DNA of 64,000 nucleotides from Geosiphon pyriformis uo1. Its lineage: Eukaryota > Fungi > Glomeromycota. Of the stretch, positions 1,941 through 56,364 are shown piece after piece (the first letter of the stretch is position 1; each line of letters begins with the position of its first letter). The notes below the pieces were generated by a model. The model was not told where the DNA came from. It made no database searches and saw nothing but the letters and a program-made list of their open reading frames with translations. The translations under genes were made by a program, and so were the position numbers. The DNA lies in contig JAAOMT010000439.1 in assembly GCA_016748015.1 (NCBI GenBank), forward strand, positions 331,527-395,526. Direction: 5' to 3'.

Positions 1941-2064
1941 CTTTAAAAAAAATCTTCTCTCTTACTCCCAAAAACCCCAATGAGTTATTTTTTTGAAGAA
2001 GAAGTTTTTGTTTTTCTCTTATTAGTATTATATCAATATTTCTTTAACTAATAACCCCTTTGTC

Positions 2065-28218: not shown

Positions 28219-28685
28219 AATGAAAGGATTATTTAAAAAAATGTTGAAAGATTTGACAAGAAAAAACAGAAAACTTCTTTTTCAGAAATGCACCTTTTTT
28301 GAGAATTTTGGAGGTAAGAGAGAAAGAAGTTTTTTTATTTTTATAATAAAATTTTTTTTGCTAATTGCTTTTTAAATTTAATTGTTTTTTTTTAATTCTT
28401 TATATGTTTTTGTAATTATAATTAAAACAAGTAAAAATTTTTCTAATTTTTTTTTTAAGTTATTAATTGTATTGGTTTTAATTTAAAATTATATTTATAA
28501 TTTTATTATTATTAAAAAATATTTCAGTTGTTAATAATTTATTAATTATTATAATATAATTTTTAAAATTTTTGATAAATTGTTAAATATATTTATAGTA
28601 ATTAATGGTTTAATTTCTTAAATTTTTAATTTTTAATTATAGAAAAAAATATATGTTTTTTGTTAATAGTTTTGAATTATAACAA

Positions 28686-29530
28686 TATTACAGATGATTA
28701 TTTAGGATCTCAAAGCAAATAACAAATCTGTAACTTGGTGCTTGATTGGTATTCTGGTGTTAATATCTAAAAATTTGATTGATCTAAAAGTTTTTGTATA
28801 GAGTTCTTTGTATAATAGACAGAGATTCAATAGTTGTTTCAATAGCCTCCCAGAATTGCAATTCCATCAAATTTTTTCTCAGCATGGTGGCTGGTAATCC
28901 TCCTGATAAGCTATCCTCAAATCTATGAGTGTTCTACCTTTGTTTTACAGGTTTTTTACCAGTCCCTATGACATCTATAACTTAGCACTTTAATTCTTGA
29001 TCAATTAGTCAACCAAAAAAAATACAAAAGAAATAAAAAAAAATAAAAAAAATAAAAAAATAAATAAAAGCAATTGCAAGTTAATATCCCATCAATAGTC
29101 ATGATTAAGAGCTATTGTTCCAGTATATTTAAGTATCAATTACTATTAACATGAAGTGTTAATAGTGGAGAGTAAATTAAGATAGTGAATAATTATTTAT
29201 TGATATTTGTGAATGGAAGATTGTTTAGATCAGATCTAAACTGGGAGATCCTTTTTTCTACTTTTAATACTACTGCTATATATATATAATTGAGATTTCC
29301 CCATTCCTCAATTCTTTATATCAAAAATCTTGGAATTCTTAGAATTCTGCAATTTCTTTGAAAGGAATCCTGGAATTTTGGAATCTTGTGATTCCTTGTA
29401 CAAGAATTTTGAAATTTCTTGAATTTTGCAATTTTTCTGAAAGGAATCTTAGAATTCTATATTTACTATGACTACTTCTAATTGACTAATTTATATGCTA
29501 ATATATACTTCTTATATTCTATGAGTAATA
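28686..29530 (-). repeat. 3' LTR of element A
   Basis: Homologous to 47051-47829. Termini TATTACA...GTAATA are mutated TGTTACA...GTAACA. The PPT complement ttattctctcttttt follows. Confidence 0.9.
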
Positions 29531-29543
29531 TTATTCTCTCTTT

Positions 29544-30173
29544 TTAATATTGAGTTCTATCAAGATTTTCTAATTTTAATTCTCTGTCTTTGAGTATTTC
29601 TTGAATTTTTTTTTCAAGAATTATTTGTGCTATCTTGTTCTGTAATTTTTCAAATTGTGCATTTGTTATTTTTTCTATCTGGTTAATAGTAATAAAGTTC
29701 ATTACTGGATTAAGTAAGATTTCTGGTCGATCTTGAAATCTAGTATGTAGTCAATAGATGGCTCTTGCTTGTGTTATTAGATTGTTTTTTCTCACAAATT
29801 GTTCTAGTTGTTACAGTATAACTGTGTCAAATAATCATTTTGTTTTATCCATGTATAAATTCTGAATGTTCAAGTGTCATCCTAGGTGAAAGTAACAAAA
29901 GTTTTTTGGAAATTATTGTATCCACCAATTCCAAGTTTCTATAGTCAACTCTTAGTATTGGATGACTTTCAGTTATGTTTCTATCACCACTTTCACTTTT
30001 GTAATTATTTTGTTCATGGTGTTCTCTATTTTCCTTTATATTTTGTCTTGTGGTCTTTTTCTGGTGTTTATGTATCAGATAATTTGTTGGTTGATTGTAA
30101 TTTCTATTTTTTGTTGTTGTATTAGTTAAAAAAGTTGTTGTGCTAGTAAGTAAATGCTGTCAGTAATCTCCAT
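29544..30173 (-). pseudogene. Element A ORF3 (unknown protein, 210 codons, env position)
   Basis: ATG 30173 to TAA 29544 is 630 nt. Reads MEITDSIYLLAQQLF...QLEQFVRKNNLITQARAIY*LHTRFQDRPEILLNPVMNFITINQIEKITNAQFEKLQNKI. Homologous to ORF3 of B and C. Contains internal stops. Confidence 0.7.
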
Positions 30174-30229
30174 TTCTACTGTCTTTTGTCATGTATACTG
30201 TGTCTTTATATATTCTTTTGGTTGTTTAA

Positions 30230-31608
30230 TTTTACATGTTTGGTTCAATAATTATGATTGATTCTAAATCTTGTAAAATCTTATCTGGTTTGACTAGTAT
30301 TTCTTGTACTCCTAATTGTAGAATATTACTAGTGGATGATATTGTTGTATTGTGGTATGGCTTCAGTTGATCTTTATGTGCTGCTTTGGTTAAGAATTTG
30401 TTGTTCAATCTTAATTTATAAGCTCCATTTCCAAGAATTTTTTTTATGTGAAATAGTTCATCCCATTTGGGGTCAAATTTTCCACTCCATTGTTTTTCTG
30501 CTTTGGTATAATATAAAAGTACTTTGTCTTCAATCTTAAATTCAACTAGTTTCTCTAATAGTTGGTTATTGTGTCTTTTTTTTTGTTTTTTCTGTAACTT
30601 TTATATATTATCAGCTACTCTTTGCCTTTTGTTTTCTAGTGTTTCCTTTAAGGCATATGTTTTTCTTAACAATGTTCTTTGGAAATTTTCTTCTGTTATT
30701 GGTTCTGTTGGATATGTTTGTACTTTTATCTCCACTGGTAGTGTTGCTGTTTTACCATATACTAATTCAAATGGTATTGTTTGTGTAGTATCTTGCTTCA
30801 TTGTCCAATAAACAAATAAAACTGATAGTATGAACAGATTCTATTTATCTTGATTTTCTTGACTGATTTTGGCAATTGCTTTACATAATGTTCTATTGAA
30901 TCTTTCAACTAATCCATTGGTTTATAGATGATATGGTGATAACAATGATCTTTTAATTCCAAATCTTTGACTTAATTCTTCTAATGTTCTATTTACAAAG
31001 TGAGTTCCTTGATCCAATAGCAATTTTTTTAAACATTTGTGTTAACAAATCAAGTCTTAATAAACGAATTCAACAATGGATTCTGCATTTGCTCTTTGAA
31101 TGGCTTTTGCTTTTGGCCATTTTGTGAGATAATTCATGATTACTGCAATATATTTGTTGCCTTTGTTGGTGATTGTTAATGGTCTGACTAAGTCAATTCC
31201 AATGTGATTGAATGGTTGTTTCACTTTGATTGGTCTCAGTAGTTCACTGAGTTTTGTTCCTCCTTTTTTCTGACAAGCATCACAATTTTGAACATATTAA
31301 ATAATGTTTGGATATATTAATAGCCAATAATATCTTTTTCTGGTTCTTTCTATTGTTGCTTCTTTATGAAAATGTCCTGCTGTTGGATCTGAGTGCATAT
31401 TAAATAATATTGTCTCTTTTTTTGGTTCTGTAATTACTCTGGTTGATTGGTCTGAATTCTTTTTGTTCTTCTGATAAAGTATATTTTGGTGATTGATAAA
31501 ATATTTTGATTGTTGTTTTATGTTATTTTGTTTTTTTTGAAATAATTTTTCCTTGAAAAATTGAGTATTTATATAATATTGGAGTTGTTGGTATTTTTGT
31601 ATATTCAT
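30230..31608 (-). pseudogene. Element A integrase (separate ORF), disrupted
   Basis: MNIQKYQQLQYYI..., HHCC domain (MHSDPTAGHF...YYW...C..C), then rve core and PFELVYG. The 3' end is approximate. Confidence 0.85.
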
Positions 31609-31673
31609 CTTTTGTTATATTTTTGGGTTGAAATTTTTTTAAATTTGTCTCATTTATGACAAACTGTTGGCAT

Positions 31674-32276
31674 TGTTACAGTTTAAAAATTTAGCAAAAA
31701 GAATCATAAAAATAATACAAACTATTCAATCATAATATAGCACAGTAATAATCTTAGAAAGGTAATGATTAACATAGTAGCAAACACCATCTCGCGATAG
31801 TGGCAAGCACCAGTTCACAATAGCAGCCAACACCAACTGGTGATAGCAGCAAACACCAGGTTGAAATATCAAAAANNNNNNNNNNNNNNNNNNNNNNNNN
31901 NNNNNNNNNNNNNNNNNNNNNNNNNNNNNNNNNNNNNNNAATTGATAAAAGCTTTATTGTGAGAATTAGAAAAGCACTAAAGACTATTAACATTCTGTGT
32001 TTCTAGATTAGAGAAACACATCAGGCAATTGCAAGAATAGCCTTAGAGAAGACCCCAAACAGTGGGTAGATTTCAATTCAGCCTCTGAGAAGAAGTACAT
32101 AAATACACACAACAATCAAGAATTAAAGAATAACTTACATCACAACAGTAAAAAGAAAGCCTTCAGTGTAACAGTGACATTATCACACAAATAGAATTGA
32201 GGAATTCATGAAAGACTGATTGCAATTAAAGTGGGATATCTGCAATTAAATATAACAAGAAAACTATTCTGTAACA
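31674..32276 (+). repeat. 5' LTR of element B (contains an undersized N gap)
   Basis: Near-identical to 39930-40796. The 64 Ns stand in for about 330 bp present in the 3' LTR. Confidence 0.93.
31876..31939. other. Assembly gap (N run)
   Basis: 64 Ns. Confidence 1.
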
Positions 32277-32296
32277 TTTGGTGAACCCTATGAAGA
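32277..32296 (+). promoter_or_regulatory. Primer-binding site of element B
   Basis: ttTGGTGAACCCTATGAAGA directly after the LTR end. TGG is complementary to tRNA CCA. The cognate tRNA was not identified. Confidence 0.75.
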
Positions 32297-35200
32297 AAGA
32301 AAATCAAAAAGGAAATAATAATTAGCAATAATTCATTGCTAAAAAGGAAAAGACAAAAGTGGCGACAAAAACCCCTAATCTTACTGTTCTTGAATTCTGC
32401 CATGCTATTTACACACAAAATCAAAGTGATCTTGAATTACCAGAAGGGTGTTGTCCAGCAGAATCTGCCCTCACTTATTATATTAACGCCAGAATAAATT
32501 ATTATATAGAAAAGGAAGAAGAACCACATGATGCAAAACTTGGATTGTATAGAGAATTATCACAATACACTACAAAAGAAGTAGCAGTAATAGCCGCAAC
32601 TATTGTCAAAATCCATCGAGAAATTGAGCAATACGCCAACGAAAATTTTCCAATATTCACAGGAAACACTAAGGAACGCACCAACAAAACCAAAAAAAAT
32701 TTAGAAACTAATCAGGAAAGTAACCAGCAAAAACTAGGAACACCAGCTCAAACGCCAAAGAAAACTGTCACTCAATCAATAAAGAAACAACGTATTTATT
32801 CACCAGAAGATAAATCATACCATTTTTCACCAGAAAATAAGATACAAATTCCATTAGGAGCTGTATTATCATCAACATCAACTCCACAAATGCCAAGAAC
32901 TCCTAGTTATATTGATAAAATTAAACAACGTAACTGGGGAGACATACCAATTACAGGAAGATATTCATCACTATTCCAAAACCCTCTTTTTCAGCCAAAA
33001 TTTAGAACGGGGTTTGAAAACCGTGAAGAGGAGTTTGAATCAGAATCCAAAAAAGAGACCAGTGAAAAAACAATCACAAGACCAGTCACTGGAACAAGCA
33101 GCCAGTCCAGAAACCAAAAAACTCGTGATCAAGAGGAAGAACCAGATATAAGGGAAGCCACCTTTAGGAATGCTCAAGAAAATATCATCCCATCTCCTCT
33201 TAGACCAATAAACTCACCAGCAGAAAATGGCAACAAAATGACCACACCATACATTGCAAGACTAACAGATTTCTCAGAAGAGGAAGAAGAAACGGACGTG
33301 CACACATGGCTCAGAGAAGCACAAAAAGCCATCCAGGCAAATAACTGGAATGACCAAAGAGCAATTTAAACATTACTTTTCTTCCTGAAAGGCACAGCCG
33401 ACTCGTGGTATCAAAGCCTGAAAACAAAACCCACGAGCTTCGCCAAATTTAAAAATGCACTTCTGGAGTATTTTAGCGACTCAAACACCATAATCCAACT
33501 ACAGAACGAATTCAATACTATCAAGCAAAATACCGGTGAAACTGTCACCCAATATCTTGCTCGATTCAATCAAATTCGCCATCAGATTGAAGCGATTGAA
33601 CAAGGATACTACACTGATTCTCAGGTTTTAAATCAGTTTATTAGAGGATTAAAAAGCAGCATTTTAGGAAGAGTACGCCCTGCCCATTTTAATTCCTTAC
33701 CAAAAGCCATTACACTTGTCAGAGTCCTTAAATCGGCTGAAAAAGAAGCTAACCATAGTCAAATGGTTAACATAGTAATGGAGGAAAATAAGACAGAAAC
33801 ATTAGAGAAAAGAGTAACGTAATTAGGGGAGGAACTCTCTAAGAAAATAGAAAGTTACCTCATCCTGGATCTGAGAAAAAATACATACCAACCACTTCAA
33901 AAATGCAGCCAGGAAGTCAGCGACAGTCGAAATAATTGCTCATTGTGCCAGGAATTCAGAACAGAAACACGCGCCTGCCATTTTTGCAAATGTGTAGGAC
34001 ATTTGATTAGTCAATATCAAACGTGAATGATGCAAGAAGCACGTGAAAATAATTACTACGCGCCACCCCAAATACCCAGAAACCAGTACACGCCAATACC
34101 ACACCAATATCCCACCACATATCAAAATCATGGAGCTTACCAGCAACAGCCCATGATAGCCAATCCGAATTGGCGTCCTGAGGCCCGAAATCAGCCCATG
34201 TGAAACCAGAACGCGTTGGTCCAGAGGAATCCAAACTGCGCCAGAACCAATCAGCAAACCAATCCAAACTACCAAAATTATCAACAAACTTACCTTAATA
34301 TACCAGAAAACCTAATCATCAGAAACAATGATGATAGAAACATAAACAGAACCAAGAATTCCTCCAAATTGAGCCAGACAATACCACCAGCAGTTGCCAC
34401 CAAAGATAGCAGCCTCGCAGCTATTTTTCCTTTTGAATTAGAGGAAAACGAGGCTATGTTCAGTGGAGCAGTATTGGACAAAAAACGCCCAATCACTACT
34501 ATGTATACGGAAATCACTGTAAACAATACCCCAATCAAACTTATCTTAGACAGCAGATCCGCTGGAAGCATCGTAACGCTTCAACTAGTAAACCAACTGG
34601 GTTTCAAAGTTGATCGTGCCACGACATCCCAAATCATAACAGCCGATAGAAGTACAAAGCTGCCTCATGGCGAAATTGACTCATTCCCTTTCGAAATTAA
34701 TGGCATAGTAATACCTACAAAAGTATTAGTAATGGATGCTACACAATATTAAGCATTAGTAGGAAATGACTGGCTAACAAAAGCCAATGCCACTTTAGAC
34801 TGGACCACCCAAGAGCTTCTGATCAATTATAATGACCACCAAGCCAAAATTCCAGCCACCTGTGGCCACTTCCAAAAACCCAGTGCCAACCAAAGACCTA
34901 CCTTCAAATTTGAGGAAAATCCAGCATTACCAGCCATCAAAACCTATCAGCTCTCTTGGGCTGATGACTAAAGAACAGGACTACCAGCCGTACCAACGTG
35001 GACCAGCGAAGAAAGATCTGAATAGAACCAAGTAAGTTTACAAAGAAACCACCAGCGATGCAGACCAAAGCTAGAATGCTCAGTTTGCAAGAAGAAACTC
35101 TTGTCTATGACTGCATGCAGCGCACCGGACGAAGACCCAAGAAATCCCACCCACTACTATTGTAACCATTGTAACAAAGAAAAATACGGTTACCCAGAAA

Positions 35201-38067
35201 GACACAGAAAATGGGACAAGGAACCATGCCTTGCTTGTGGAGAACCATTACCAAGAGGGTGCGACTGGAACGACTTACCAGGCAGAGGAGGAACATGTGA
35301 CGCAATTTGCCAATACACAATCCTCATCTGTGACTGGGTAAGAGGAGGAACGCCGTTCGAAGCAGTGTTCAACAGAGCGTTAAAAAAACTACAGCACTAC
35401 CCACATGACGAGAACAAGTTGTACAACACCACACAAGCCAAAGTAAGAGAAGGAACCACCAAAGAAATATGACATTGGAAAGAGTCAGCCAAAGTAGCCG
35501 ACGAAGTCGCCAACTACAACATGTTTGACCCAGTGGACAAATTTCAGGACTACTACCAACAACTATGCCTCACTCGACAAGAGCAAGAACAATACCTCAC
35601 CCAAATCAACACTTACCTCTGTGAAAACTGTCTCATCCCGTGCCAAAATCAGTGTTGTGAAGAGTATCAAGATGAAAGAGACTTAAAAAGAAAAATGGAA
35701 ATTGAGAATCAGCAGTCTCAAAATCAATCAATAAATCAACAAGACTCACCTGATGGTCCTGAGTCAGAAAAATTTGTAGCCTATACTGACCTAGAACAGG
35801 TGACCAACATCCGATACTTTGACAATGGGCACTTAGGAATAATACCCGAAAGAGCCCATCTAACTAATGCCGGATTCGATCTACGTTATCCAGAAGACCA
35901 ATCCACAACATTACCACTCAGGAGCATCACCAAAATTGACCTAAAAATAGCAGTTGAAATTTTACCAGGAATAATGGTTCAAATGGTGTCATGATCAAGC
36001 TTTGCGAAAAAAGGAATAAGCGTTCAAGGAGGAGTAATTGACTCTGGATACACTGGAAATTTGATGGTTTTGCTATAAAACAATTCAGAAAAACCTTATA
36101 CCATTGAATCTAAGGAAAAGATTGCACAAGCAATTTTCCTACCATTGGTAAAAATTGGGAAATTTGTGCCAGTGGAAAATCGTGAGGAATTGTCACAAAC
36201 AACGAGAAGAACTTTTGGTTTCAGATTGACAGGAAAAGGAATTGAAGCGAATTTCGCTGAAACAATAGAGGAAAAAGGTGAAGTAATTAAAAATGAGTGG
36301 TCCATCACGCTCCTACTATATGGAAAATCAGAAATAAGAATAAAAAGGACAATTAAAGAAAAAGACCTAATATTTGAGCCCTATCCAGAAACTTGCCAAC
36401 AGTTTCTCATAGGACTTACTAACCTTTTTATTCCAGCTAATAAAGCTCAGTGGATAAAAATTCCTATCGCAAACACCACAGAAGAACCCATCTACATTCT
36501 GGAAGATACCATCATTGGATACCTCAGAACGGAGCTAGAAAATGCGTCAACACTACAAGAAATTCTAAATTTCCCAGAAATCGCCCTCTACTGTGAACTC
36601 ACTTCAATAAATTGGCAACAACCGTTAGAATGCTATCAATTTACACCAGAAGAATTGGCCAAATTAAACATTGGAACAATGGATCCTGACCAACAGCGAC
36701 AATTAAAAGCATTAATTTTAAAATACTCTGATATATTTTCAAAAAATGGCGAATTTGGAAGAACCAACTTGGTTCAACACCAAATCCCCACTGGAAACGC
36801 CAGACCTGAAAAACAATGCACTTACCGTGTCCCACCAATGGAACATAATTTTATCAGAGAAGAAGTCCAAAGCATGTTGAAAAAAGGAATAATACAACCA
36901 TCAATGAGTCCATGGTTCTCACCAGTTGTTTTAGTAAGGAAAAAGAACGGAAAAATTAGATTTTGCGTCGACTATCGCAAACTAAACAGCAAAACAACCA
37001 AAGATTCATACCCAATACTGTTAATTGACGAAATCTTCGACGTTTTTGGAGGAGCAAAATGGTTTTCTATACTGGACTTGACCAGTGGGTACTGGCAAGT
37101 GGAAATGGACCCAAAGGACAGACATAAAACAGCATTCACAACACAAAATAGCAATTATGAGTTCAATGTAATGCCATTTGGATTAACAAACGCTCCTGTG
37201 ACATTCCAAAAACTAATGGACATAATTTACTCCAGAATCCTGTGGCAATCTGTTGTTGTCTACTTGGATGATACAAATGTTTTCTTGTCAAAATTCATGA
37301 ATCATCTCCAACATTTACAACAAGTTTTTGAGAGATTGAGACATGCTGGACTTAAACTAAATCTAGAAAAATGTTTCTTTGGGAAAAATGAGCTAGTATT
37401 TTTAAGACACGTAGTTGGAAAAGATAGAATAAAACCAGATCCATCAAAAATAGACAAAGTGAAAAATTTTCCAGTACCTTGAAACGTTTTAGAAGTTAGA
37501 AGCTTTTTAGGACTCGCATCTTACTACCGCTGCTTTGTAGAAAACTTTTCAAACATTGCCAAACTCCTTAATTACCTACTATCTAAAAATGTGAAGTTTG
37601 AATGGACTGAAGCACAACAAAAAGCTTTTGAGTACCTTAGACAAAAGCTCATTGAATCACCAATAATGATCTATCTGAATTTCAACAAGAAATTCATTTT
37701 GGCCACAGATGCCTCTGGAACTGGACTTGGAGCCATTCTGTCACAAAAAGATGATAATGGAAGAGAACGTGTAATTGCTTATGCCAGCAAAAGTCTCAGT
37801 ATGGCAGAACAAAACTACGCAGCATATGAACTTGAATGCTTAGCAGTAGTCTGGAGTTGTGTTCACTTTGACACATATTTACGGTACCAACCCTTTGAGA
37901 TTACGACAGATCATAGAGGTCTGGTCTGGTTAAATAACAAGAAAGCGCTAAAAGGAAAATATGCCAGATGGTCACAAATGTTAGCACCATACAATTATAT
38001 TATCAAATACAAAGAAGGTACCAAAAATGTTAATGCTGACTGTTTGTTAAGAATGAGACACACATAA
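32290..38067 (+). pseudogene. Element B single-frame polyprotein: N-terminal domain - Gag(CA, CCHC) - protease - Cys-rich domain - dUTPase - RT - RNase H
   Basis: ORF fragments starting at 32359, 34216, 35101, 35521, 36145 and 37591 are all in one frame and are separated only by point stops. CA: W..E......NNW.D...FLKGTADSWY. PR: LILDSRSAGS. RT: RFCVDYRKLN, LDLTSGYWQV, MPFGLTNAP, YLDD. RH: TDASGTGLGA, ELECLAVVW, TDH, NADCL. Confidence 0.93.
35836..36236 (+). other. dUTPase domain within the element B polyprotein
   Basis: All five trimeric dUTPase motifs are recognisable: AGFDL, (R>*)SSFA, GVIDSGYTG, KIAQ and RRTFGFRLTG (from RGxxGFGSTG). Confidence 0.92.
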
Positions 38068-38096
38068 AAATCACCAACCCACCCGCCACAACAACA

Positions 38097-39369
38097 ATGA
38101 ACAACCACCTTTACAAAAACCTCAGCCAATACTTGGAAACACTACAAATAGATGAAGAAATGCCAGTAAAAGAGCTAATTAAGCTCCAAAAATTAGCAAA
38201 ATACTATTTCATCTAAAATCACATACTTTATTACCAGAATCGACAAAATCCAGATAATCCATTAAGAGTTATAACCATGGATGAAAAAGAAACTATTTTA
38301 TTTAACATGCACTCAGATATTCATTCAGGCCACTTTGGAAAAACAGCAACCATTCAACGTGCAACTAGCCATTACTATTGGCCAAAAATGAGTTCAGACA
38401 TAATCCAATACATAAGAAATTGTGACCCATGCCAATAAAGAGGAAGAGCAAAAACAACGGAATTATTAAGACCAATAAAAGTTGAACAGCCATTTGACAG
38501 AATCGGAATTGATTTAGTTGGACCTTTACCAATAACAACAAGAAACAACCGTTATATTGCAGTAGCCATGGACTATCTCACCAAATGGCCAGAAGCTAGA
38601 GCTATTAAAACAGCTGATGCTATTTCCGTAGCTCAATTCGTACATGAAGACTTAATTTGCTGACATGGATGTCCACAAGAATTGTTATCAGATCAAGGCA
38701 CACACTTCGTAAACAGCACCTTAAAAGAACTTAGCCAAAAATTTGGAATCAAGCGACCACTGTTATCACTATACCACCCTCAAACAAATGGATTAGTTGA
38801 AAGATTTAATCGCACATTATGCAAATCACTGGTGAAAATTAGTAACGAACATGAAAAAGAATGGGATTTGTTCATACCAGCAGTACTACTAGTATATAGA
38901 ACAGTAAAACAAGATATTACACAATTCACACCATTTGAACTAGTTTATGGAAGAAAAGCCACATTATCCGTTGAACTTACTATCTCAACTTATCCAAGTG
39001 ACACTATTACGGAAGCAACATTCCAGGAAACACTACTTAGAAGAACATACAAATTAATAGGAACTTTAGAAAACAAAAGAAAAAAAGCAGCACAAAATAT
39101 TGAACAATCACAAGAACAACAAAAAGTGAGACATGATAACCAGTTACCAGATAATATAATTAGCTACAAAATTGGAGATAAAGTATTGTTGCATCGTACA
39201 AAAATGGAAAAACAGTGGAGTAAAAAATTTGATCACAAGTGGAATGGACCATTTTATATTCACAAAATACTTGGAAATGGAGCATACAAGCTAAGACTAG
39301 ATGATAAAATATTAAGAAAAGCAGCACATAGTAACTGGCTGAAATTCTATTACAGTAAACCAGTAATAA
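38097..39369 (+). pseudogene. Element B integrase (own ATG, different frame from RT-RH); runs into an N gap
   Basis: MNNHLYKNLSQYLE..., MHSDIHSGHFG...YYW...CDPCQ, IGIDLVGPLP, DYLTKWPEA, LSDQGTHF, YHPQTNGLVERFNRTL and GPY/F motif WNGPFYI. Confidence 0.92.
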
Positions 39370-39643
39370 NNNNNNNNNNNNNNNNNNNNNNNNNNNNNNN
39401 NNNNNNNNNNNNNNNNNNNNNNNNNNNNNNNNNNNNNNNNNNNNNNNNNNNNNNNNNNNNNNNNNNNNNNNNNNNNNNNNNNNNNNNNNNNNNNNNNNNN
39501 NNNNNNNNNNNNNNNNNNNNNNNNNNNNNNNNNNNNNNNNNNNNNNNNNNNNNNNNNNNNNNNNNNNNNNNNNNNNNNNNNNNNNNNNNNNNNNNNNNNN
39601 NNNNNNNNNNNNNNNNNNNNNNNNNNNNNNNNNNNNNNNNNNN
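39370..39643. other. Assembly gap (N run)
   Basis: 274 Ns hide the integrase end and ORF3 start of element B. Confidence 1.
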
Positions 39644-39916
39644 ACAACTATCCAACTATTAGAACCTTTCATTGGAAAAACCAACACTATATTCCATTCA
39701 AAAACAGTTTACAGAATTTTCAAAGCATTTGAAAACTGTTACAAATTATTGTTGGACCCAACCATAAACATAATAACAACCAACAGTATTACACGTCTTA
39801 CCAACTCGCAATTTCAAGAATTACAACAACAAATTAATAACATAGTATTGAACCACTATAGTAACTTAAAATTTAATGAAGAAATTAACTTCGATTTCGA
39901 CGGAGCTCAATCTTGA
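39644..39916 (+). CDS. Element B ORF3, C-terminal 90 codons (5' part lost in the gap)
   Basis: Open frame TTIQLLEPFIGKTNTIFHSKTVYRIFKAFENCYKLLLDPTINIITTNSITRLTNSQFQELQQQINNIVLNHYSNLKFNEEINFDFDGAQS*. The stop abuts the PPT. Confidence 0.72.
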   Translation, partial: TTIQLLEPFIGKTNTIFHSKTVYRIFKAFENCYKLLLDPTINIITTNSITRLTNSQFQELQQQINNIVLNHYSNLKFNEEINFDFDGAQS

Positions 39917-39929
39917 AAGGAAGGGATAA
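39915..39929 (+). promoter_or_regulatory. Polypurine tract of element B
   Basis: GAAAGGAAGGGATAA immediately before the 3' LTR TGTTACA. Confidence 0.85.
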
Positions 39930-40796
39930 TGTTACAGTTTAAGAATTTAGCAAAAAGAATCATAAAAATAATACAAACTATTCAATCATAATATAGCACA
40001 GTAATAATCTTAGAAAGGTAATGATTAACATAGTAGCAAACACCATCTCGCGATAGTGACAAGTACCAGTTCACAATAGCAGCCAACACCAACTGGTGAT
40101 AGCAGCAAACACCAGGTTGAAATATCAAAAAAAAAGTATTTTCTCGTAGAACTACAAACATGTATATATACAGTAGTTTTAATATTGGGAAATAATCAAT
40201 CAAGTAATAAAAATCATAACTTATCAAGCAACAGATCCAATTTTATCCAACAAACTTCACTTTAAATCATACTTTCAAATTAAATATCCCAAGAAACCTT
40301 TAAAAATCAAAAAGAAATGAAAAAGAATATTTAAAACGGAACTATCACAATCCAAAGTATTAAGAAACTTACTTGTATTATTTATTGAATGAAACTATCA
40401 TTCATCAACTGAATCCCTTGGAAGAATAATCCTTGATCAAGATTATTCACGTTGTTACTAATTAATAAAAGCTTTATTGTGAGAATTAGAAAAACGCTAA
40501 AGACCATTAACATTCTGTGTTTCTAGATTAGAGAAACACATCAGGCAATTGCAAAAATAGCCTTAGAGAAGACCCCAGACAGTGGGTAGATTTCAGTTCA
40601 GCCTCTGAAAAGGAGTACATAAACACACACAACAATCAAGAATTAAAGAATAACTTACATCACAACAGTAAAAAAAAAGCCTTCAGTGTAACAGTGACAT
40701 TATCACACAAATAGAATTGAGGAACTCATGAAAGACTGATTGCAATTAAAGTGGGATATCTGCAATTAAATATAACAAAAAAACCATCCTGTAACA
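39930..40796 (+). repeat. 3' LTR of element B (867 bp)
   Basis: TGTTACA...TGTAACA termini. Direct repeat of 31674-32276. Confidence 0.95.
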
Positions 40797-43700
40797 GCAT
40801 TTTTGTTTTGTTCTCTTTTTTTGTAATGCACTATATAATTAAATAGTGACAGTTCTATTTTCCATTTAACATGACAATTATCTGCAAATTTTTGTTTTTG
40901 AATTGAAATCAATTCTTTATGATCTATGTACACATCAAATTTTTGACTCAAGTATTCTTTTCATTTCATAACTGCTCAATAGATTACTAAGTGTTCTAAT
41001 GCTAGTGTTCCATAGTTCTTTTCTGCTGGACTTAAGCTTCTACTGGCATAAGCTATTGAATGTTTTCTTCTATTTGGTCTTTTCTGTAATAGTACTGCTC
41101 CCAATGCTTGGTCTGATGCATTAGCAGTAATAATAAATAGTTTGCTGTGATTTGGATACATTAATACTAGAGCTTGAATAAACTTTCTTCTCAGTATGTC
41201 GAATGCTTCTTGTTGAGCTTCTGTCTATTTATACTTTATATTCTTAGTTTGTAAATGATGGAATGGCTGAGCCAGTTTAGAAAAATCCTTGATAAAATGA
41301 CAATAATAGTCTGCAAATCCCAAAAATGCTCTTAGTTCTGTCAAATTGGTTGGCACTAGAAAGTTTTTGACTATTGCAATCTTATCCAAATCTGTTTTGA
41401 TACTGTTTTTGCTTACAATATGTCCCAAAAACTTGAGCTCCATTTTGCCAAAGAAGCATTTGTTGGCATTTAGTTTCAATCCTACTTGTCTGAGTCTTTC
41501 AAATACTTGTTGGAAATGATACAGATAATCATCAAATGTTTTTGAGAACATATTGGTGTCATCCAAGTATATGACTACTGATTTCTATAGTAGTCCAATA
41601 TAGACAATTTTCATAAGTCTCTGGAAGATAGTTGGAACATTCATCAAGCCAAATGACATAACTTCAAATTCAAAGTTTTCTTCTCAAGTTGTAAAAGCCG
41701 TTTTCTTTTTGTCTTCTGGTTTTATGGCTACTTACCAGTAACCACTGTCTAAATCTAACATTGAAAACCATTTCTTTCCTTTAAAAACATTGAAAAGTTC
41801 TTGGATCTTTGGAGTTGGGTAGCTGTCTCCTTTTGTTACTTCATTTAGTTTCCAGTAATCTACACAAAAGTGGATTTTTCTATTCTTCTTATGGATTAGT
41901 ACCACTGATGATAACCATGAGCTCATTGATGGCTAAATTAGCCTATTGTCAAGCATCCAGTTGATTTTTTGACAAATGATCTCATGGCTAGCTAGTGGTA
42001 CTCTGTATGCTCTTTGCTTAATTGGCATTACATCTCCAGTTTTTATCTGATATTAAATAATGTCTGTTCTGCCAAATTTGTTTTCACTGAGAAAAATGTC
42101 ATTGAAATTGTTGAGTAACATCTTGAGTTGCATCTGTTGAAGTGAATTTAAGTTTCCTATGTTTATTTATTCTAATTGTTCTAGTTGGAGCAAATAATAT
42201 TTACTTCGTCCATAAATTGTTTGTGATGTGATTTCAACATATCCACAAAGCTATGGAAAGTCTGGAATAGAGTTTGGTGGTTGGTCTTCTACTTCTGTGC
42301 TTAGATATTTGATGATGGTTCCTTCTGGTATTTCTACAATATTTCTTGTGTTGTTATAGATAGGAATTTTGATGTAATTATGGTTCTTGGCAGGTATGTA
42401 GAGATTAATGAGTTCAATCTTTTCTGATTTACAAATAATTAATTTGGCTTCAAAAATCTGTGCTTGATCTTTCACTTTTTTATCTATAGTGTACATATAC
42501 TGATCATATGATAGAATAGAAATTAGTTGATGGATTGAAATAATTTCTTCTTTGTCAACAATTTTTTTTTCTGCCATATTAACTGGTACATCTATTCTAT
42601 TTGTTGATCCAAATTTCTGTATCTTTCTTGCTGTTATCTCTAGTTCTTTCCTATTTTCTACTAACACTAACTGAGTTATTTTCACCAAAGGTAAAAATAT
42701 AGTCTGTGCTATCTTTTCATTTGGCTCTATGATATAGGCCTTTTCCAAATTATTTTGTAGCATTGCAATAATATTTTCTATATATTCTGTGTCAATTATT
42801 CCTCTTCTGATGTTGATTCTTTTTTTTACTAAACTACTCTTAGATACTAGTTAAATCATGATTGTTGCTAAGATTTTTAGTGTGATTTTGAGATCAATAC
42901 AAGTGCATAAATGGGGTTCCAGTTTGATGGTGTCTTTTCTTAGATATCTCAGATCAAACCTTGCATTGGTATTGTGTGCATGTTTTGGCATGATACTTTC
43001 ATTATTATCACTAAACCATTTAAGTTCTTGCTTCTTAAAAAGATCAAGAAGCACAATATATGTTTTGGGGTTTGAATCGAAGTCCAAATTGTTATTAATT
43101 TTGTTATCATATTGAGTAGAACTGAAACCATTGTTTTTGTTATTGTTATTGTCTAAGTTTGAATTGGAATCAAAATCTGATTTTGATTCTGATATGCAGC
43201 TGCTAATTGGTTCTTCCTTTTTTGGAATTATGTAAATCATATGTGTTGGTAGATTGTAAATGAGGTTACACTCATTACAATATTGAAAGTTATATGGAAT
43301 TAAACAATGGTCACATAATCAAGTGTTGATTTTTTCAAAGCATTACTTTTGCTCTTCTCTTGTAGATGTTAGCTTTTAGTAGTGTTTATAGAATTGTTCT
43401 GGATTTAAGAGGTTTATGACTGGTTCTGGGTCCTAGTCGAGTTCTATGGTTTCTGGTAAATTATTTTTGATTGTCCTTATTTCTTTTGGTGACACTTCTT
43501 CGATTTTGGTGAAAGCCATTTGCCAAATTTCATTGTCATTATGTGGACAACCATCCAAGCATTTGACTGCTCATCTTTAGGCAGCATCTATAGACATTCT
43601 TTTTTTTTTCCAGTTACTTATGAGAATCATGTACTAACATAATTTATTGCATGTTCCTCCTCTTCCAAGAATGTTATTCCACATTTCTTCATTGAGAAGA

Positions 43701-46700
43701 GTTTCTCCACAAGTTAAGTATGGCTCATTATCTTATTTTTCTACTTGTTTTGGTCTGCCAAAGTGCTCAACAAGACATGAGCAGCAATAGAACTTAGTTG
43801 CTATCTGGTATTCCTCATTGTTATCACAGCATGCACCCATTGATGATAATTTCTTGTCACAATCAATACACTCTAGTTTTGATCAACAATAATTAAACAA
43901 TTGTGGTTGAGTGTAAATATATAGATGGTAAGTGGTAGTTGGTATTAGATTTTCTTCTTTTTTTTTTTTTTCCTTATAATTGTTTTCTTTCTACTTCCAA
44001 GTTGTTGTCAGTTCATCCTGATTATTGTTGGTTTTCCAGGCTTGGTCAGCATTCCAGGTAAGTTTTTCCCTTTGTTTTTCTTTTCTATTGTCATCCCAAG
44101 AAAGTATTGGTAGTAGCTCATTGTGGTTTTTGTTAGCCCAGAATACTTGATAGGCTTTCCAGGTAGGTTTTTTTTTTTTTTTCTCAAATTTAATAAGTGG
44201 AGCTAATGGTGTAATAATGGATTTGAAGTGTCTACATGTGGCAGGTACCCACATGTATCGACTGTTTTGGCTAAGCTGTAGTTCCTGCATGTTCCAGTCA
44301 AGCATGGCATTTGTTTTAATTAGCCAGTCATTACCAACTAGTGCTTGATACTGTGTAGCCTCCATTACCAAAACTTTGATTGGAGTAATAATACCATTTA
44401 TTTCAATGAAAAAATTATCAATCTTACTAATAGAAGTCTTGGTTGCTCTATCAGCCATTATTATTCTGGCATTAGTAGCATGATCAACTTGGTGACCTAA
44501 TTGGTCCATAAGTTGTTGTGTGATAATGCTGCCTGCTAACCCACTATTAAAAATAAATTTGATAGTATGGCCATCCACTTTGGCATTAGTGTACATGGTG
44601 GTGATTGATTTTTCCTTGAGTGTGGTTCTACTGAATAAAGGAGTTGTTAATGGTTTTTCACTTTCAAAGAAAAATATAACTGCGAGTAACTTGTCTTCCA
44701 TGATGGTAGTTAATGATATGTTGCTGGTAAGTGATTTCTAATTTGTTTTTAAGTTGTTGGATAAGATGTCTTCTGGGATAACTAGGAGACTTAAATAGTT
44801 CTAAGAATTTGGGTTTTGAGTATACCCAGTTCCTAAACTCTACTGTTGTGATCCTGATGACTGGTTGGGTAAACTGGAAATCAGTTGGTAAACAACTATT
44901 GCCAATCTCCAGTTTTGGGTAATTTTTAATCTGGGATTTCTGGATGTCATCTGAGCTGGGTTTAATGGCAGTATTGGAATTGGTGGTTATTGATATATTA
45001 CTTGTGGCTGTGGTTAATAAATAACTGATGCTGCCAGTTAATAAAATGGAGCTTGATATACCAGTGGTTAATAAATTGATGGCTGCATCACTAGTAGATA
45101 ATTCAATTAATATATTTCTGGATTGGGTTGATATCTCAGAGTTTGAAACTAGTGATTGGGTTTTGATATTGATTTCCTGATCATTGGTTTTTTATTCTTA
45201 ATCTGCAATCAATTCTCAAATGTTTTTGTTTATCACAGTAGTGGCAAACACGCATCTTTTGTAGCCACTGTTGATTGGTGAATAATGATGGATGCGATTG
45301 ATTTTGGGAATGATTCACATTTTCTTGATTATTGCGTTGTTGTGGAGATTAATAAACTGCTTAATTGTTAGCTAAATATCCCTCTAATTTTTGGTTGATG
45401 AAATTATTGAATTGTTTCAACTTAGGATCCAATTCAGATGATCTGTTCATTACTAGATAAATAACTTAAGCGTAGTTAGCTTCAAGTTTAACTGCTTCAA
45501 AATCTCTGGCATTTGTAATGGTGGCTTGAAGATCTGCAGAATGCATTGGGCATACATGCTGGAGGATACTACTGTATAGACCTCTAATGAATTGATTTAG
45601 AATTTGTGGTGCTGTAAAATAATCAGTCTGAATTGCCTGAATTTGGTGCAGATTCCTATGGAAGCATCCTAGGTAAGTGGTAACTGCTTCATTTTCTCCT
45701 TGCTTGATAGTGGTAAAGGTGTTTGCTAAACAATTAATACTATTATTGTTACTGAAGTATTGTAAAAATGCAAGCTTGAATGCATTGAAATCCTGAGGTT
45801 TTTTGGCTAGGCTTTGATATCATGAGTCAGCAGTATCTTGGAGAAAATAGGAGATGGCTTGCATGGCTCTGACATCATCCCATCTGTTGGTTGTGATGGC
45901 TTTTTCCATATCATTTAGTCACACTTGGGCATCGTCCTCTTTGCCAGTGAATTTTTCAAGTTTTACAATTGGTGTGTATGCCATTTGTGATTGTTGTGAT
46001 AGTGGTAGTTGAAGTTGTTATTGCAGCTGTTGAGACAGTTGTTGTAGTTGCTGCAGTGGTACTGGCAGCAGTTGGATTTACTGATTCAGTTGTTGTAATG
46101 ACTGACCAATTAGTTCAACTGGTTAATTAATTATGATTTTTGAAAGTATGTGCTATTGATTAATTAAATCGGAATTTTGATTGTTCTGATTTGACAGTGT
46201 TTGAATATTCAGAGTTCCAATTTCTGGATGTTCTAAATTTGGATTTTTCAGAGTTTGAACATTCGGGGTTTCAACTTCCGGGTTTTCTGGGATCAAGTTT
46301 TGGTAAGTAAATTCCTGATCCTCTTCTTCTTCTTCTGATTTTGTTACTTTCACAGATCAAAAATTCCAAAATTGGGTTGAGATGACAGTGATTGATATCT
46401 TGATGGCATTGGTAATTGCAATTTAAATTCTTTAAAATATTTGCTATATGGTCCTAACAATTCTGCTCTTCTTTGTTTGCTTTGGAATGAGAATCATCTA
46501 AAGATTGATGTCATATTTGATGTGAATATGTCTGCTGATGAAATATTGATGGCACTTCCTGGTGTATAATGGTATAATGAATTGGTTGGTGATTCAATTC
46601 TGGTTTTCTTTCAAGTGGGTGGTTGTATTTGTTTTGGTGTTACTGTTGGTGTTTGCAATCTTTCTTTGCCTTTGTCTGCATAAGTGATAGGGAATTGTTG

Positions 46701-47030
46701 TTGTGTGTACTTTTCAATGGTTTGATTGATTTCTCTGATAATTGGTGTGAAACTGTAGTTTCTTGGTAAGCTGGTATGTTGAAATAATTCTGTATAGAAA
46801 TTTTCTTTTGTGGATTCAATGTTAACTGTTCCTTCTAAGCAGTTTGTGATTTTATCATTGACATAAAAGTTGAAGACTGATTCTACTGGAAAATGATTAT
46901 TGTTTAATCCTAATTGTTGACTGTACTGTTGAAACAAGGATTTGGCAAATTCTAAGTGGTTTGCTCCTATGATTTCTGATTCTGTCACTTTTGGATGATT
47001 GTTGTTAGTGCTGGTTCTCTGTAAGATTAT
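40797..47030 (-). pseudogene. Element A polyprotein (N-terminal domain, Gag, PR, Cys-rich, dUTPase, RT, RNase H), heavily disrupted
   Basis: CA from ATG 45984 (MAYTPIVKLEKFTG). PR FIFNSGLAGS (~44550). Cys-rich KLECIDC...GRGGTC (43250-43880). dUTPase ARFDL/KIAQ/FGST (42590-43000). RT FCVDYWKLN, LDLDSGYW, YLDD. RH ANASDQALGA. Confidence 0.9.
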
Positions 47031-47032
47031 AT

Positions 47033-47050
47033 CTTACAAGGAGCACTAAA
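47033..47050 (-). promoter_or_regulatory. PBS of element A (consensus with C: TGGTGCTCCTTGT)
   Basis: Minus strand ttTAGTGCTCCTTGTAAG after the LTR. C has ttTGGTGCTTTTTGTAAG at 59191-59174. Compatible with a tRNA ending GGAGCACCA, such as tRNA-Ile(UAU) (inference). Confidence 0.65.
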
Positions 47051-47829
47051 TGTTACAGATGATTATTTGGGGTCTCAAAGCAAATAACAAATCCATAACT
47101 TGGTGTTTGATTGGTATTCTGGTGTTGATATCTGAATATTTGATTGATCTGAAGGTTTTTGTGTAGAGTTCTTTGTATAATGAACAGAGATTCAATAGTT
47201 GTTTTAGTAGTCTCTTGGAATCACAATTCTGTCAAATTTTTTTCTCAGTGTGGTGGCTAGTAATTCTCCTGGTAAGCTATCCTCAAATCTATGAGTGTTT
47301 TACTCTTGTTTTACAGGTCTTTTACCAGTCCCTATGACGTTTGTAACTCAGTGCTTTAATCTTTGATTAATTAGTCAACCAAAAGAAATACAAAAGAAAT
47401 AAAAGAAAATAAAGAAATAAACAAAAGCAATTGCAAGTTAGTATCCTATCAACAGCCGTAATCAAGAGCTATTGTTCTAGTGTAGTTAAGTATCAATTAC
47501 TATCAACATGAAGTGTTGATAGTGGAGAGTAGATTGAGATAGTAAATAATTATTTATTGATATTTGTGAATGAAAGATTGCTTAGATCAGATCTAAACTG
47601 GAAGATCCCTTTTTCTACTTCTACATAATTGAAATTCCCCCATTCCTCAATTCCTTACATCAGGAATCCTGGAATTTCTGGAATCCTGCAATTTCTTTGA
47701 GAGGAATCCTGGAATTCTGGAATCCTGCAATTCCTTGTACAAGAATTCTAGAATTCCACATTTACTATGGCTACTTCTAATTGGCTAATTTATATGCTAA
47801 TATATACTTCCTATATTCTATGAGTAACA
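47051..47829 (-). repeat. 5' LTR of element A
   Basis: TGTTACA...GTAACA termini. GGAAT(C/T)CTG tandem array at 47660-47760. Confidence 0.92.
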
Positions 47830-47904: not shown

Positions 47905-48158
47905 AAAAATTTTTTTTTCTCTTATTAATCCTTTAGCCATAACAAAAGTAAAATACATACCAAAGTTATAGGTTTTTTTTTTCTTTGTTTTTTTTCTAGT
48001 TATTTCTTTAAACACATCTTTATTTGTTATAATGAAACCAATAGACTTGTTTGCTAGTGGTTTTAGCTCTGGCTTGGCTGGTTTAAAGACCTGCTTTAAT
48101 ACTAAAAAGAAGCATATAAAAAGTGTCTATTTTTATGATACATTATTTAAAAAGCTAA
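47905..48158 (+). mobile_element. Possible 5' end (UTR plus ORF1 start) of another LINE, cut by the LTR at 48159
   Basis: A T-rich leader resembles the LINE 5'UTRs. It is followed by ATG 48032 and a G/T-rich, Ser/Gly/Lys-rich N-terminus (MKPIDLFASGFSSGLAGLK...KKK) that stops being credible at the LTR edge. Confidence 0.4.
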
Positions 48159-49123
48159 TATTACAGATAATTATTTGGGACATTGATACAAATAACAAAC
48201 TCATAACTTGGTGTTTAATAAGTAATATGATTGGTAATCTTTAAAGATTTTTGTGTCTGAAGATTTTTGTATCTAAAAGTTTTGGTTGAATTTTTTGTAT
48301 AATAAACAGAAATTTAATATTAATATCCTTTGGTGATATTTTTAGTTTTCTTTTCAACCCACAAATTAATATGTGTTGTTATCTGTAGTTTTTCAGAATA
48401 TTTATTTTATTAATTTTTTTTTAATTTGATGGCCAGTTTCCTAATAAGCTATTTTTTAATTCCAAGTGTCTATCCTTATTCTTGGGTTTTTTACCAGTTT
48501 TTTCCCTAACATTAGTATTTTGCTTTAATTTTTTTAATCAGTTAGTAAACAACAAACAAAAATAAATAAAAATAAAAATAAAAAATAAAAATAAATTAGT
48601 ATCTTGTCAATAGCTGTAATTAAGAATTATTGTTCCAGTATAATTAAGTATTGGATGCTATCAACATTAAGTGTTGATAGAATAGAAATAATCAATATTT
48701 TCTAATTAAGTAATGATAACATAGATTCAAGTGGTAATAAATAATTTATTAATATATAATGTGAATTTGAAACTTCTTCTAACTGTTTTTTTAACTAAAG
48801 ATTCTAACATTCTGTTTTTTCTGCTTTTAATACTTTTGCTATATATACATAATTAATGTTTTATAAAATCTCACACATTTGTGAACAATGTGCTATAATT
48901 TCTTAAACAATGCTTATATTGCTAAGCAATATGTTTTAATCTACTGATATTGCTCACATTATTAAGCAATGTGTCATAATTCATTGAAATTGCTTATATT
49001 GTTAAGCAATGTACTATAATTTACCAGTAATGTGCTCACATGCTCAATATTATTCTCTTATTGGTCTATTTTTTCTATTTGTTTTTTCTACTATTTTTCT
49101 TGTGCTCTTTTCTATAAGTAATA
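48159..49123 (-). repeat. 3' LTR of element C
   Basis: TATTACA...GTAATA (mutated termini). Homologous to 59192-60137. Confidence 0.85.
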
Positions 49124-52100
49124 TGATCTCTTTTTTTTTAATATTAAGTTTTATCAAAATCTTTATTTTGGATTAATTCTGCTACTTTTTTTTTAATACT
49201 ATTTGTTTAACTCTGGTTTTTATATTTTCTACTTGTGAGTTGTTCATTCTTTCTTACTGGTTAATAGTTATTGTTTTTATTTTTGGATGTAGTAATATTT
49301 CTAAATAATTTGAAATATGGTATATAGTTGATAAATTGTTCTAATGTGAAACAATGAGTTTGTTTTCTTTCTGATAAAGTCTTTAATTTGTTGTATTATT
49401 TCTTGATTGAATATTTTTTTGAATTTGTCTGTATATAGTTTTTAAATATTCAGCTTTTGTTCTAACTAATAGTAATAGTATGATATTGGAAATTGTTCTG
49501 TCTATTGTTTCCAACTTTTTTTTGTTAGTTTCTTTGTTAGAATAATTATAAGTATTGTCCCAAAAGTATTCTTCACTTTTTTTATTATTTTATTTGACCA
49601 ATGTTTTGTTGAATTCAGTAGTTATTGATATGGTGTATTTTCTGCTTTTTTTTTTGGTGTTTTGATAGCAGATTGTTTGGTGGTTAATAACAATTTCTAT
49701 ATCTAATTGTTGTTAATTTACAGCTTAAAATAATTGTTGACCTATTGAATAGATGTGATCTGGGATTTCCATTTTTCTGTTGTTGCTTTTATTACATATA
49801 CTGTGTTTTTTTATATTATTTTGGTTAATTACTTTAATTTGGTTGCATTAATAATTATAATTAGTTCCAGATTTCATAGAATTTTATTTGGTTTGACTAA
49901 TATTTTTTGTATTTTTAGTTATGAAATATTATTGGTAAATGATAATACTATATTGTGATATGATTTCAGTTAATCTCCATATACTGTTTTAGCTAAGATT
50001 TTATTGTTCTATCTTAGTTTATAAGCTTTATTTTCTAGAATTTCTTCAATGTAAAATAGTCTGTTCTATTTGAAGTTAAATTTTTTACTCTATTGTTTTT
50101 CTATTTTGGTACAATATAAAAGTACTTTGTCTTCAATTTTGAATTCAACTGGTTTATCTGGTAATTAGTTATTATGTTATTCTTTTTGTTTTTTTTGTGA
50201 TTTTTGAATATTATTAGCTGTTTTTTGTCTTTTGTTTTTTAGAGTTTTTATTAGTTCATATATTCTTCTTAGCAATGTTTTTTGTAAATTGGCTTCTGTT
50301 ATTGGTTCTATTAAATATGTGTTAATGTTTATCTTAATTGGTAATATTGCTGTTCTACTATAAACAAGTTCAAATAGTATTGCTTATATAATATCTTGCT
50401 TCATTGTTTGATAAGCAAATAGTACTGATGGTATAAACAAATTTTATTCATTCTGGTTTTTTTGGCTAATCTTGACTATTGTTTTATACAATGTTCTGTT
50501 AAATCTTTTGACTAAACTATTTGTTTGTGAATAATATGGCAATGATAATAGTCTCTTAATTTCAAATTTTTGACTCAATTCTATTTGTGTTCTGTTTACA
50601 AAGTGAGTTTTTTGATCTGATAATAATTCTTTTGGACATTCATGTTAACAAATCAAATCTTGATAAACAAATTTGGCTACAGATTCTGCATCTGCTCTTT
50701 GAATTGCTTTTGCTTCTGGTTATTTAATAAAATAATTCATGACTACTGCTATATAACAATTGCCTCTGCTGGTTATTGTAAATAATCTAACTAAGTCAAT
50801 TCTAATTTGATCAAATAGTTGTTTCATTCTAATTGGTCTTAGTGGTTCACTGGGTTTTGTTTTTTTTTTCTCTAACAAGCATCACAATTTTAAATGTATT
50901 AGATAATGTTTGGATACATTAATAGTCAATAATATTTTTTTTTAGTTCTTTCTATGGTTGCTTCTTTATGAAAATGTCCTGCTGTTGGATCTAAGTACAT
51001 GTTGTATAGTATTGTTTTTTTCTTTGGTTCTGTAATTACTCTGAATGATTGATCTGAATCTTTTTTGTTTTTCTGATATAGTATATTTTGGTAAATAATA
51101 AAATATTTTAATTGTTGTTTTATGTTGTTTTATTTCTTTTAAGATAATTTTTTCTTAAACTGTTAAGTATTAATATAATGTTGTAGTTGTAGATATTTTT
51201 GTATGTTCATCTTTTGTTATATTTTTGGAATTGAAATGTTCTTAGATTTGTTTTATTTGTGACAAACCATTGGCATTTCTGTTTTCTTTTCTCTTTTTAT
51301 AATGTACTGTATAATTAAATAGTGAAAGTTCTATTTTTTATCTTGTGTGGTGATTATTTCTAAATTTTTGTTTCTGAATTAATGTCAATTCTTTGTGATC
51401 AGTGTATATGTTATACTTTTAATTTAAGTATTTTTTCCATTTAATAACAGCTTAATAGATAGCCAAATGTTTTAATACTAGAGTTTTATAGTTTTTTTCA
51501 GCTGGACTTAAGTTTTGGCTAATATATATTACTAGATGTTTTCTTCTTTCTGGTCTTTTTTGAAACAGTACAGCTCTCAATGCTTGATTTGATGCATTAG
51601 TGGTAATAATAAATGGCTTGCTATGATCCAGATAAATTAGTACTGAAGCTTGAATGAGCTTTTTTCTTAAAATATCAAAAGCTTTTTGTTGAATTTTTAT
51701 CTATTTGTATTTTATATTCTTGGCTTAAAGCTGGTAAAGTAGTTAAGCCAGTTTGAAGAAGTTTTGGATAAATTAGTGGTAGTATCTAGTGAATCCCAAA
51801 AATGTTTTTAATTCTGTGAGATTTGTTGGTATTGAAAAGTTCTTGACAATCTCAATCTTGTTTGAATTGGTTTTGATGCTGTTTTTACTTACATGTTTTA
51901 AAAATTTCAGTTTTTTTTTGTCAAAAAAACACTTGTTTGTATTAGTTTCAATTTGGCTCTTTTTAGTTTCTCAAACACTTGTTAAAGATGGTAAAAATAA
52001 TCATTAAATGTTTTTAAAAACATATTAGTGTTATTCAAGTATACTATTACTAATTTCTATAGTAGTCTAGTATAAACAATTTTCATAAGCTGTTAAAAAG

Positions 52101-56269: not shown

Positions 56270-56331
56270 NNNNNNNNNNNNNNNNNNNNNNNNNNNNNNN
56301 NNNNNNNNNNNNNNNNNNNNNNNNNNNNNNN
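56270..56331. other. Assembly gap (N run) within a poly-T tract
   Basis: 62 Ns flanked by T homopolymer. Confidence 1.

Positions 56332-56364
<33 letters not shown>

Follow-up and report, generated by a model that had tools for sequence, protein, structure and literature searches.

LTR (long terminal repeat) retrotransposons of the glomeromycotan fungus Geosiphon pyriformis encode, between their protease (PR) and dUTPase, a cysteine (Cys)-rich domain that is apparently undescribed. We analysed this domain in a 64,000-nucleotide window of strain uo1 (assembly GCA_016748015.1, contig JAAOMT010000439.1, positions 331,527–395,526 of the forward strand; all positions below are those of the window), in which three related elements—A, B and C—each contain one copy (Table 1). 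An initial annotation of the window, made from the letters alone, had picked out the segment in element B and proposed that it is a zinc-binding accessory factor. It is highly probable that the segment is a selected, likely zinc-binding domain of Pol. It is apparently a new, likely three-zinc domain within a known kind of element, and its known range is narrow.

The motifs on which the initial annotation relied are present. In element B, the domain shares one reading frame with the protease upstream and with the dUTPase and reverse transcriptase (RT) downstream, and the counterparts proposed for elements A and C are real homologs (38% identity between copies A and B over 204 residues; E-value (E) 3e-43). 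Cys makes up 17 of 206 residues in copy B, versus 13 of 1158 in two other stretches of the same frame. The number of CxxC pairs is, alone, a weak measure: four pairs are only modestly above composition, and were reached in 589 of 20000 shuffles of copy B. It is the strong conservation of columns that indicates a real pattern. Cys conservation in the wider family, singled out beforehand by the initial annotation as one of two tests that could overturn its reading, was followed in 90 near-ungapped domain stretches taken from 227 homologous proteins: Cys occupies 541 of the 606 filled cells at 13 core positions (C5, C8, C33, C36; C55, C58, C78, C82; C186, C189, C193, C198, C201). Cys is the commonest residue at these positions in nearly every subfamily with data; the exceptions are C33, which is Tyr in the sole subfamily-E row covering that position, and C193, which is Cys in 3/7 in subfamily A. 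The supposedly invariant GRGGTC did not hold up; only 9 of 71 rows have it in exact form, copy C lacks it, and G76 and C78 alone are shared. Two further residues, C18 and H114, are common among homologs and absent from P0111, a metagenomic homolog described below.

From the spacing of the 13 conserved cysteines, three zinc sites are predicted: two tandem four-Cys fingers, followed by a helical core and a C-terminal finger. Zinc binding itself can soundly be inferred from the same spacing. We take the spacing of sites 1 and 2 to resemble that of treble-clef fingers (LIM, TRASH/MYM), and site 3 to resemble a RecR-type C4 finger, but neither type gave a significant sequence or fold match to the domain. 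The first finger has a median net charge of +4 in 27 stretches and is followed by a nearly invariant KKL; apart from this finger, the sole net-basic part is a mildly basic helix at residues 85–112. Overall the domain is acidic (isoelectric point (pI) 4.6–5.5 in four subfamily representatives), which weakens plain nucleic-acid binding. Thus, the earlier suggestion of a nucleic-acid binder loses ground for the whole domain. The flanking linkers are variable, as initially described; likening the domain to a separately cleaved protein was an overstatement, linkers alone being seen.

Homologs were collected in two ways. The 96 proteins found by three word-index searches (31, 30 and 35) are all named as Geosiphon pyriformis hypothetical proteins. 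A profile search (HMMER) of 1.84 billion representatives gave 398 matches at E 0.001; among the best 150 of these, 20 were looked up, and comprise 19 Geosiphon pyriformis gene models and P0111. The latter, a 1064-aa protein from a 19-kb metagenome contig, contains protease, Cys domain (48% identical to copy B), dUTPase and RT in a single unbroken frame. Provisionally, and among the word-search proteins and the 20 profile matches looked up, the Cys domain is limited to Geosiphon and a relative. The 90 stretches fall into six subfamilies, the seeds of which are 28–53% identical (quick tree). A protease directly upstream and/or a dUTPase directly downstream of the domain is found in 163 of 225 homologs (both in 34, protease only in 78, dUTPase only in 51); of the remaining 62, 58 have flanks of no more than 150 residues. 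None of the listed homologs turned up outside an element.

Comparison of copies A and B indicates that the Cys domain was under selection on the plus-strand frame, as judged from the sequence. The N-terminal fingers are 47% identical and the helical core 28%, while the linkers barely align; elsewhere in the elements, identity is 46% for capsid, 45% for dUTPase, 41% for RNase H (RH), 57% for protease and 60% for RT. By codon position (first/second/third), identity is 0.54/0.69/0.41 in the Cys domain, 0.59/0.70/0.41 in capsid and 0.57/0.70/0.43 in dUTPase. It is the combination of capsid- and dUTPase-like conservation with this coding pattern that points to selection, and indicates that the domain functioned within the polyprotein as the subfamilies diverged.

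The initial annotation had not recognised the domain as a standard retroelement component, and database comparisons agree. Pfam gave no significant match over the domain in copy B, 17 aligned members or four further homologs (best stray match RNA_pol_N, E 0.0015, in two of the 17 members), and short fingers being easily missed, no profile match to LIM, TRASH, PHD-ADD or RING was significant. No PDB sequence matched the domain significantly (best E 0.14); P0111 matched PDB sequences through its RT and dUTPase only, among the best 60 of 96 rows. Viral contigs and metagenome contigs gave no significant match to the domain, and the ESM Atlas none reaching 0.9 (best 0.83 and 0.84). An AlphaFold model built from 17 sequences has a predicted local distance difference test (pLDDT) score of 47.6 and a predicted template-modelling (pTM) score of 0.30; it is best over the first finger and has helices predicted from residue 80 to 187. 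With this model, Foldseek against PDB and BFVD returned no matches at E 0.001—the weak rows are LIM, RING and TRASH fingers at E 0.49 or worse, and together with the Atlas rows name LIM, TRASH and zinc ribbons—and the best VIA-align hit (Z 5.6) falls on a generic three-helix stretch. The profile and structure searches proposed at the outset therefore yield no confident match to a known retroelement domain; because the model is poor, the blank fold searches are weak tests and do not show a new fold.

Specific identities were also tried and rejected. A retroviral CCHC knuckle does not fit: the CX2CX4HX4C spacing is absent, the 13 shared ligands include no His, and the overall charge is acidic rather than basic. 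Zn-dependent cytidine deaminases are recognised by HxE ... PCxxC; the domain has no conserved HxE, position 116 being E, D, A, K or C by subfamily, and the H114 of a deaminase-like reading is absent from P0111.

What might the domain do? The reading that we favour, with a probability of about 0.35, is that it is a docking module that tethers the adjacent dUTPase to where reverse transcription takes place. After a protease cut on its upstream side, the Cys domain would remain fused to the dUTPase trimer or bound to it. Nucleic acid would be contacted by its basic first finger, and a basic partner (the Gag knuckle region, RT or integrase) by its acidic core, such that dUTP would be destroyed where cDNA is made. 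Docking is favoured because zinc modules recur beside PR–RT dUTPases, as in the nucleocapsid (NC) of betaretroviruses and the knuckle of Juno elements. Also in its favour are the placement next to protease and dUTPase in most homologs, the unbroken P0111 frame, the dUTPase motifs kept in P0110 and largely in P0111, the coding-type conservation between A and B and the basic first finger. Several points weigh against it. The acidic pI given above is unlike that of the basic NC. The stretch between the last finger and dUTPase motif 1 is acidic, varies in length (63–105 residues in six homologs) and is a potential cleavage site. Neither a protease nor a dUTPase neighbours the domain in four homologs whose flanks are long. 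Adjacency may reflect no more than a protease–RT gap that tolerates cargo. Finally, docking is hypothetical, and the model of the fold is poor at the scores given above.

The region is also covered by contigs from run X2, which belong to a related B-type copy and not necessarily to copy B. These skip 14 stretches of element B (32188–36613 and 40295–40371). Ten of the 14 read CT..AC on the plus strand—GT-AG on the minus—and none reads GT..AG on the plus strand; one further stretch becomes GT-AG after a 1-base shift, and the donor and acceptor flanks of the first eight introns are mostly canonical. In DNA run X1, the contigs of which are short, 0 of the 8 such joints listed for both runs were seen. 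The X2 contigs look like heavily spliced antisense RNA across gag, protease and the Cys domain; a processed DNA copy is a possible source of the joints, which come from one run, labelled 'RNA? (probably DNA)'. Behind 36613, one contig has a loose end that matches 18 bases at 39836–39853, just upstream of the 3' LTR. This junction has 5 bases of microhomology and no GT-AG pair in the B copy; an antisense first intron of 3.2 kb was accordingly dropped, and the junction reflects a deleted copy without RT–integrase, or a template switch. Run X2 has no cover over RT–integrase, to which we attach no evidential weight.

Could the domain be an inert spacer, or be kept for the antisense RNA instead of for a protein? 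Antisense exons overlap it and no sense-strand transcript is shown, but the codon-position pattern follows the plus-strand frame, the 13 cysteines, those lying within antisense introns included, are held in six subfamilies, and the antisense chain has no frame longer than 96 aa in the B copy. Antisense RNA does not explain the conservation of the domain, and this explanation is largely refuted; we give it almost no credence. It is unlikely, though to a far smaller degree, that the domain belongs to a diverged zinc-finger family already known, captured from the host or another mobile element and missed by insensitive searches. A fair fold search would need a better model than the present one, and the family range rests on the best 150 of 398 profile matches; on the other hand, Pfam, PDB sequences, the Atlas and three fold libraries gave nothing significant, and the listed homologs include none outside an element.

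Two further explanations look to the host. By analogy with the accessory proteins of complex retroviruses and the anti-silencing proteins of transposons, the domain may be a protease-released adaptor that binds and blunts a host silencing factor, acting in RNA interference or DNA methylation. An acidic build of zinc fingers and helices would suit protein binding, and the linkers vary on both sides of the domain. Signs of host pressure also exist: of the 37 listed transitions that separate B from run X2, 19 fall at CpG (versus 86 of 794 available C sites), there are antisense spliced contigs, and LTR elements amount to 41.2% of the G. pyriformis genome (PMC11952901, partial text). Yet the analysis turned up neither a partner nor a cleavage site nor a ligase-recruiting motif, and divergence of the domain does not outpace that of capsid, an arms race not being apparent at the given resolution; the adaptor is a tentative idea, and rather unlikely. 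Alternatively, the domain may read chromatin or DNA and steer integration in place of the apparently missing chromodomain, which we consider distinctly improbable. In its favour, A and B give no chromodomain match behind the integrase SH3, element B has landed within A and an A-type solo LTR within C, and the weak Foldseek rows are LIM, RING and TRASH. The tandem fingers ending in CxxxC recall TRASH/MYM-type and ADD fingers. However, the domain is around 2.4 kb upstream of the integrase in Pol and not on it; PHD/ADD spacing is not seen by eye, nor is there such a Pfam or PDB match; an N gap follows the integrase in B; and nesting is expected anyway in an LTR-rich genome.

Turning to the surroundings, element B (31674–40796, plus strand) is a whole but decayed Ty3/gypsy element. 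It has LTRs with TG..CA ends, a 4-bp target duplication at its flanks and the order gag, protease, Cys domain, dUTPase, unnamed 120-aa segment, RT, RNase H, integrase (INT), SH3; the LTRs, the target-site duplication and the gag-PR-RT-RH-INT order place it in Ty3/gypsy, and the best PDB match of the P0111 RT is Ty3-G (E 2e-38). It is inserted into element A, between the RNase H and integrase of the latter, with element C alongside; stops decay all three. The Gag CCHC knuckle is decayed in B (read by eye) and intact in homolog P0006, while the dUTPase motifs are intact in homolog P0110 and largely intact in P0111. Behind the integrase SH3, no chromodomain was found either in A, read in three frames, or in B as far as its N gap, the copies being decayed. 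The unnamed segment has no Pfam match and may be a degenerate dUTPase-like fold.

Table 1. Coordinates of the Cys-rich domain, its predicted parts, the elements that carry it and the putative antisense features
Feature	Position	Strand	Remarks
Cys-rich domain, copy B	35065..35682	+	~205 aa; one in-frame TGA at 35470
Predicted zinc site 1, CxxC-24-CxxC (C5, C8, C33, C36)	35077..35172	+	net basic; conserved KKL next
Predicted zinc site 2, CxxC-19-CxxxC (C55, C58, C78, C82)	35227..35310	+	
Predicted helical core	35311..35619	+	second half acidic; least conserved, 28-30% A vs B
Predicted zinc site 3, CxxCxxxCxxxxCxxC (C186, C189, C193, C198, C201)	35620..35667	+	C201 is Tyr in copy B
Cys-rich domain, copy A	43262..43879	-	8 stops
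Cys-rich domain, copy C	55543..56171	-	stops and one frameshift
5' LTR of element B	31674..32276	+	TG..CA; has an N gap
gag of element B	32332..34460	+	unnamed N-terminal part, capsid (PF03732, PF19259), decayed CCHC knuckle, Gln/Asn-rich tail
Aspartic protease of element B	34465..34872	+	
dUTPase of element B	35773..36237	+	2 stops in B
Second unnamed conserved segment, between dUTPase and RT	36238..36600	+	~120 aa; 37% A vs B
RT and RNase H of element B	36862..38010	+	
Integrase of element B with Tf2-1-like SH3	38100..39368	+	no chromodomain match behind it
3' LTR of element B	39930..40796	+	preceded by purine-rich tract
Element A, host of inserted B	28684..47827	-	LTRs 28684-29528 and 47049-47827, 82% alike
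Element C	48157..60137	-	LTRs 48157-49123 and 59190-60137, 79% alike
Span of run X2 contigs skipping GT-AG introns	32188..36613	-	related B-type copy, not necessarily copy B
Putative antisense introns inside Cys domain	35157-35278, 35397-35616	-	

Other observations concern the elements more generally. The A-type solo LTR within element C occupies 53843–54726. Differences between the paired LTRs of A, B and C are nearly all transitions (85:2, 18:0 and 140:10, not normalised for LTR composition) and mostly outside CpG; the listed internal differences between B and run X2 are CpG-rich. A conserved N-terminal Gag extension precedes the capsid at 32332–32700, with a weak PAZ_2 match (E 0.0014) under the cut-off. 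A long post-integrase stretch at 29530–30350 (minus strand), 75% alike between A and C with frames partly open, is possibly a decayed extra open reading frame (ORF). Beyond these elements, the window contains a LINE-like (long interspersed nuclear element) element in two inverted copies (1933–8754 and 21531–28345; 69% alike, with endonuclease and RNase H matches), an ORF at 14811–15380 with a G-patch domain (E 1e-8), and a fourth, more distant gypsy remnant at 60695–63656 (minus strand) with RT, RNase H and integrase. The remnant gave no Cys-domain match; an LTR-like piece and the end of the window truncate it upstream.

The literature searched holds no description of the Cys domain, which Geosiphon genome papers or their supplements could mention; nor does the partial text of a survey of arbuscular mycorrhizal fungal elements, the source of the LTR content given above, mention such a domain (PMC11952901). 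Fixed extra domains in LTR retrotransposons are rare and informative on host–element conflict, according to part of one paper (PMC9289625). The present domain is large, and old enough to span six subfamilies; P0111 is an unbroken natural copy and hence a defined, testable protein. At a minimum, it should be annotated as an element domain and not as host genes; the elements bearing it yield hundreds of 'hypothetical protein' gene models in this LTR-rich genome. Should docking prove true, the NC-dUTPase arrangement would have been reached by a second, independent route. Should silencing suppression prove true, the domain would represent a new type of counter-defence in fungi. The boldest version—that a new three-zinc fold is an element-encoded suppressor of fungal silencing which helped the lineage to fill much of the Geosiphon genome, with antisense RNA as the other side of the conflict—is a long shot, and very doubtful.

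Known systems, cited here from partial texts, resemble the domain or its setting in part. Badnavirus polyproteins contain a lineage-specific extra Cys motif in a reverse-transcribing element, the second Cys motif CX2CX11CX2CX4CX2C (PMC4926197); however, that motif is part of the coat protein, upstream of the protease, and its spacing is not matched by the domain, which ends in CX2CX3CX4CX2C. Fungal and rotifer elements with a dUTPase between PR and RT have been described (PMC2864245, PMC6431247, PMC5408684). Among the fungal ones, PosPlaTy3-5 of Postia placenta has it there, and Phanerochaete elements and Tuber Tmt1 also carry a dUTPase; these Ty3/gypsy elements have the same PR-dUTPase-RT-RH-INT order within LTRs (PMC2864245). 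They differ in that the excerpted survey concerns chromoviruses and mentions no Cys-rich domain before the dUTPase, while no chromodomain was found here. The Juno LTR retrotransposons of bdelloid rotifers have an extra zinc module beside a PR–RT dUTPase, but theirs is one knuckle behind the dUTPase, versus a 13-Cys domain ahead of it here (PMC5408684). A further likeness is the NC-dUTPase of betaretroviruses (p30 of mouse mammary tumour virus; Mason-Pfizer monkey virus), in which a zinc-finger module is directly N-terminal to the dUTPase; there, the dUTPase stays fused to the zinc-finger NC, which is proposed to attach it to sites of DNA synthesis (PMC4531489). The betaretroviral module is a basic Gag nucleocapsid of 81–95 aa joined by frameshift, whereas the Geosiphon domain, at 205 aa, is separate, acidic and all-Cys and follows the protease, with Gag having a knuckle of its own.

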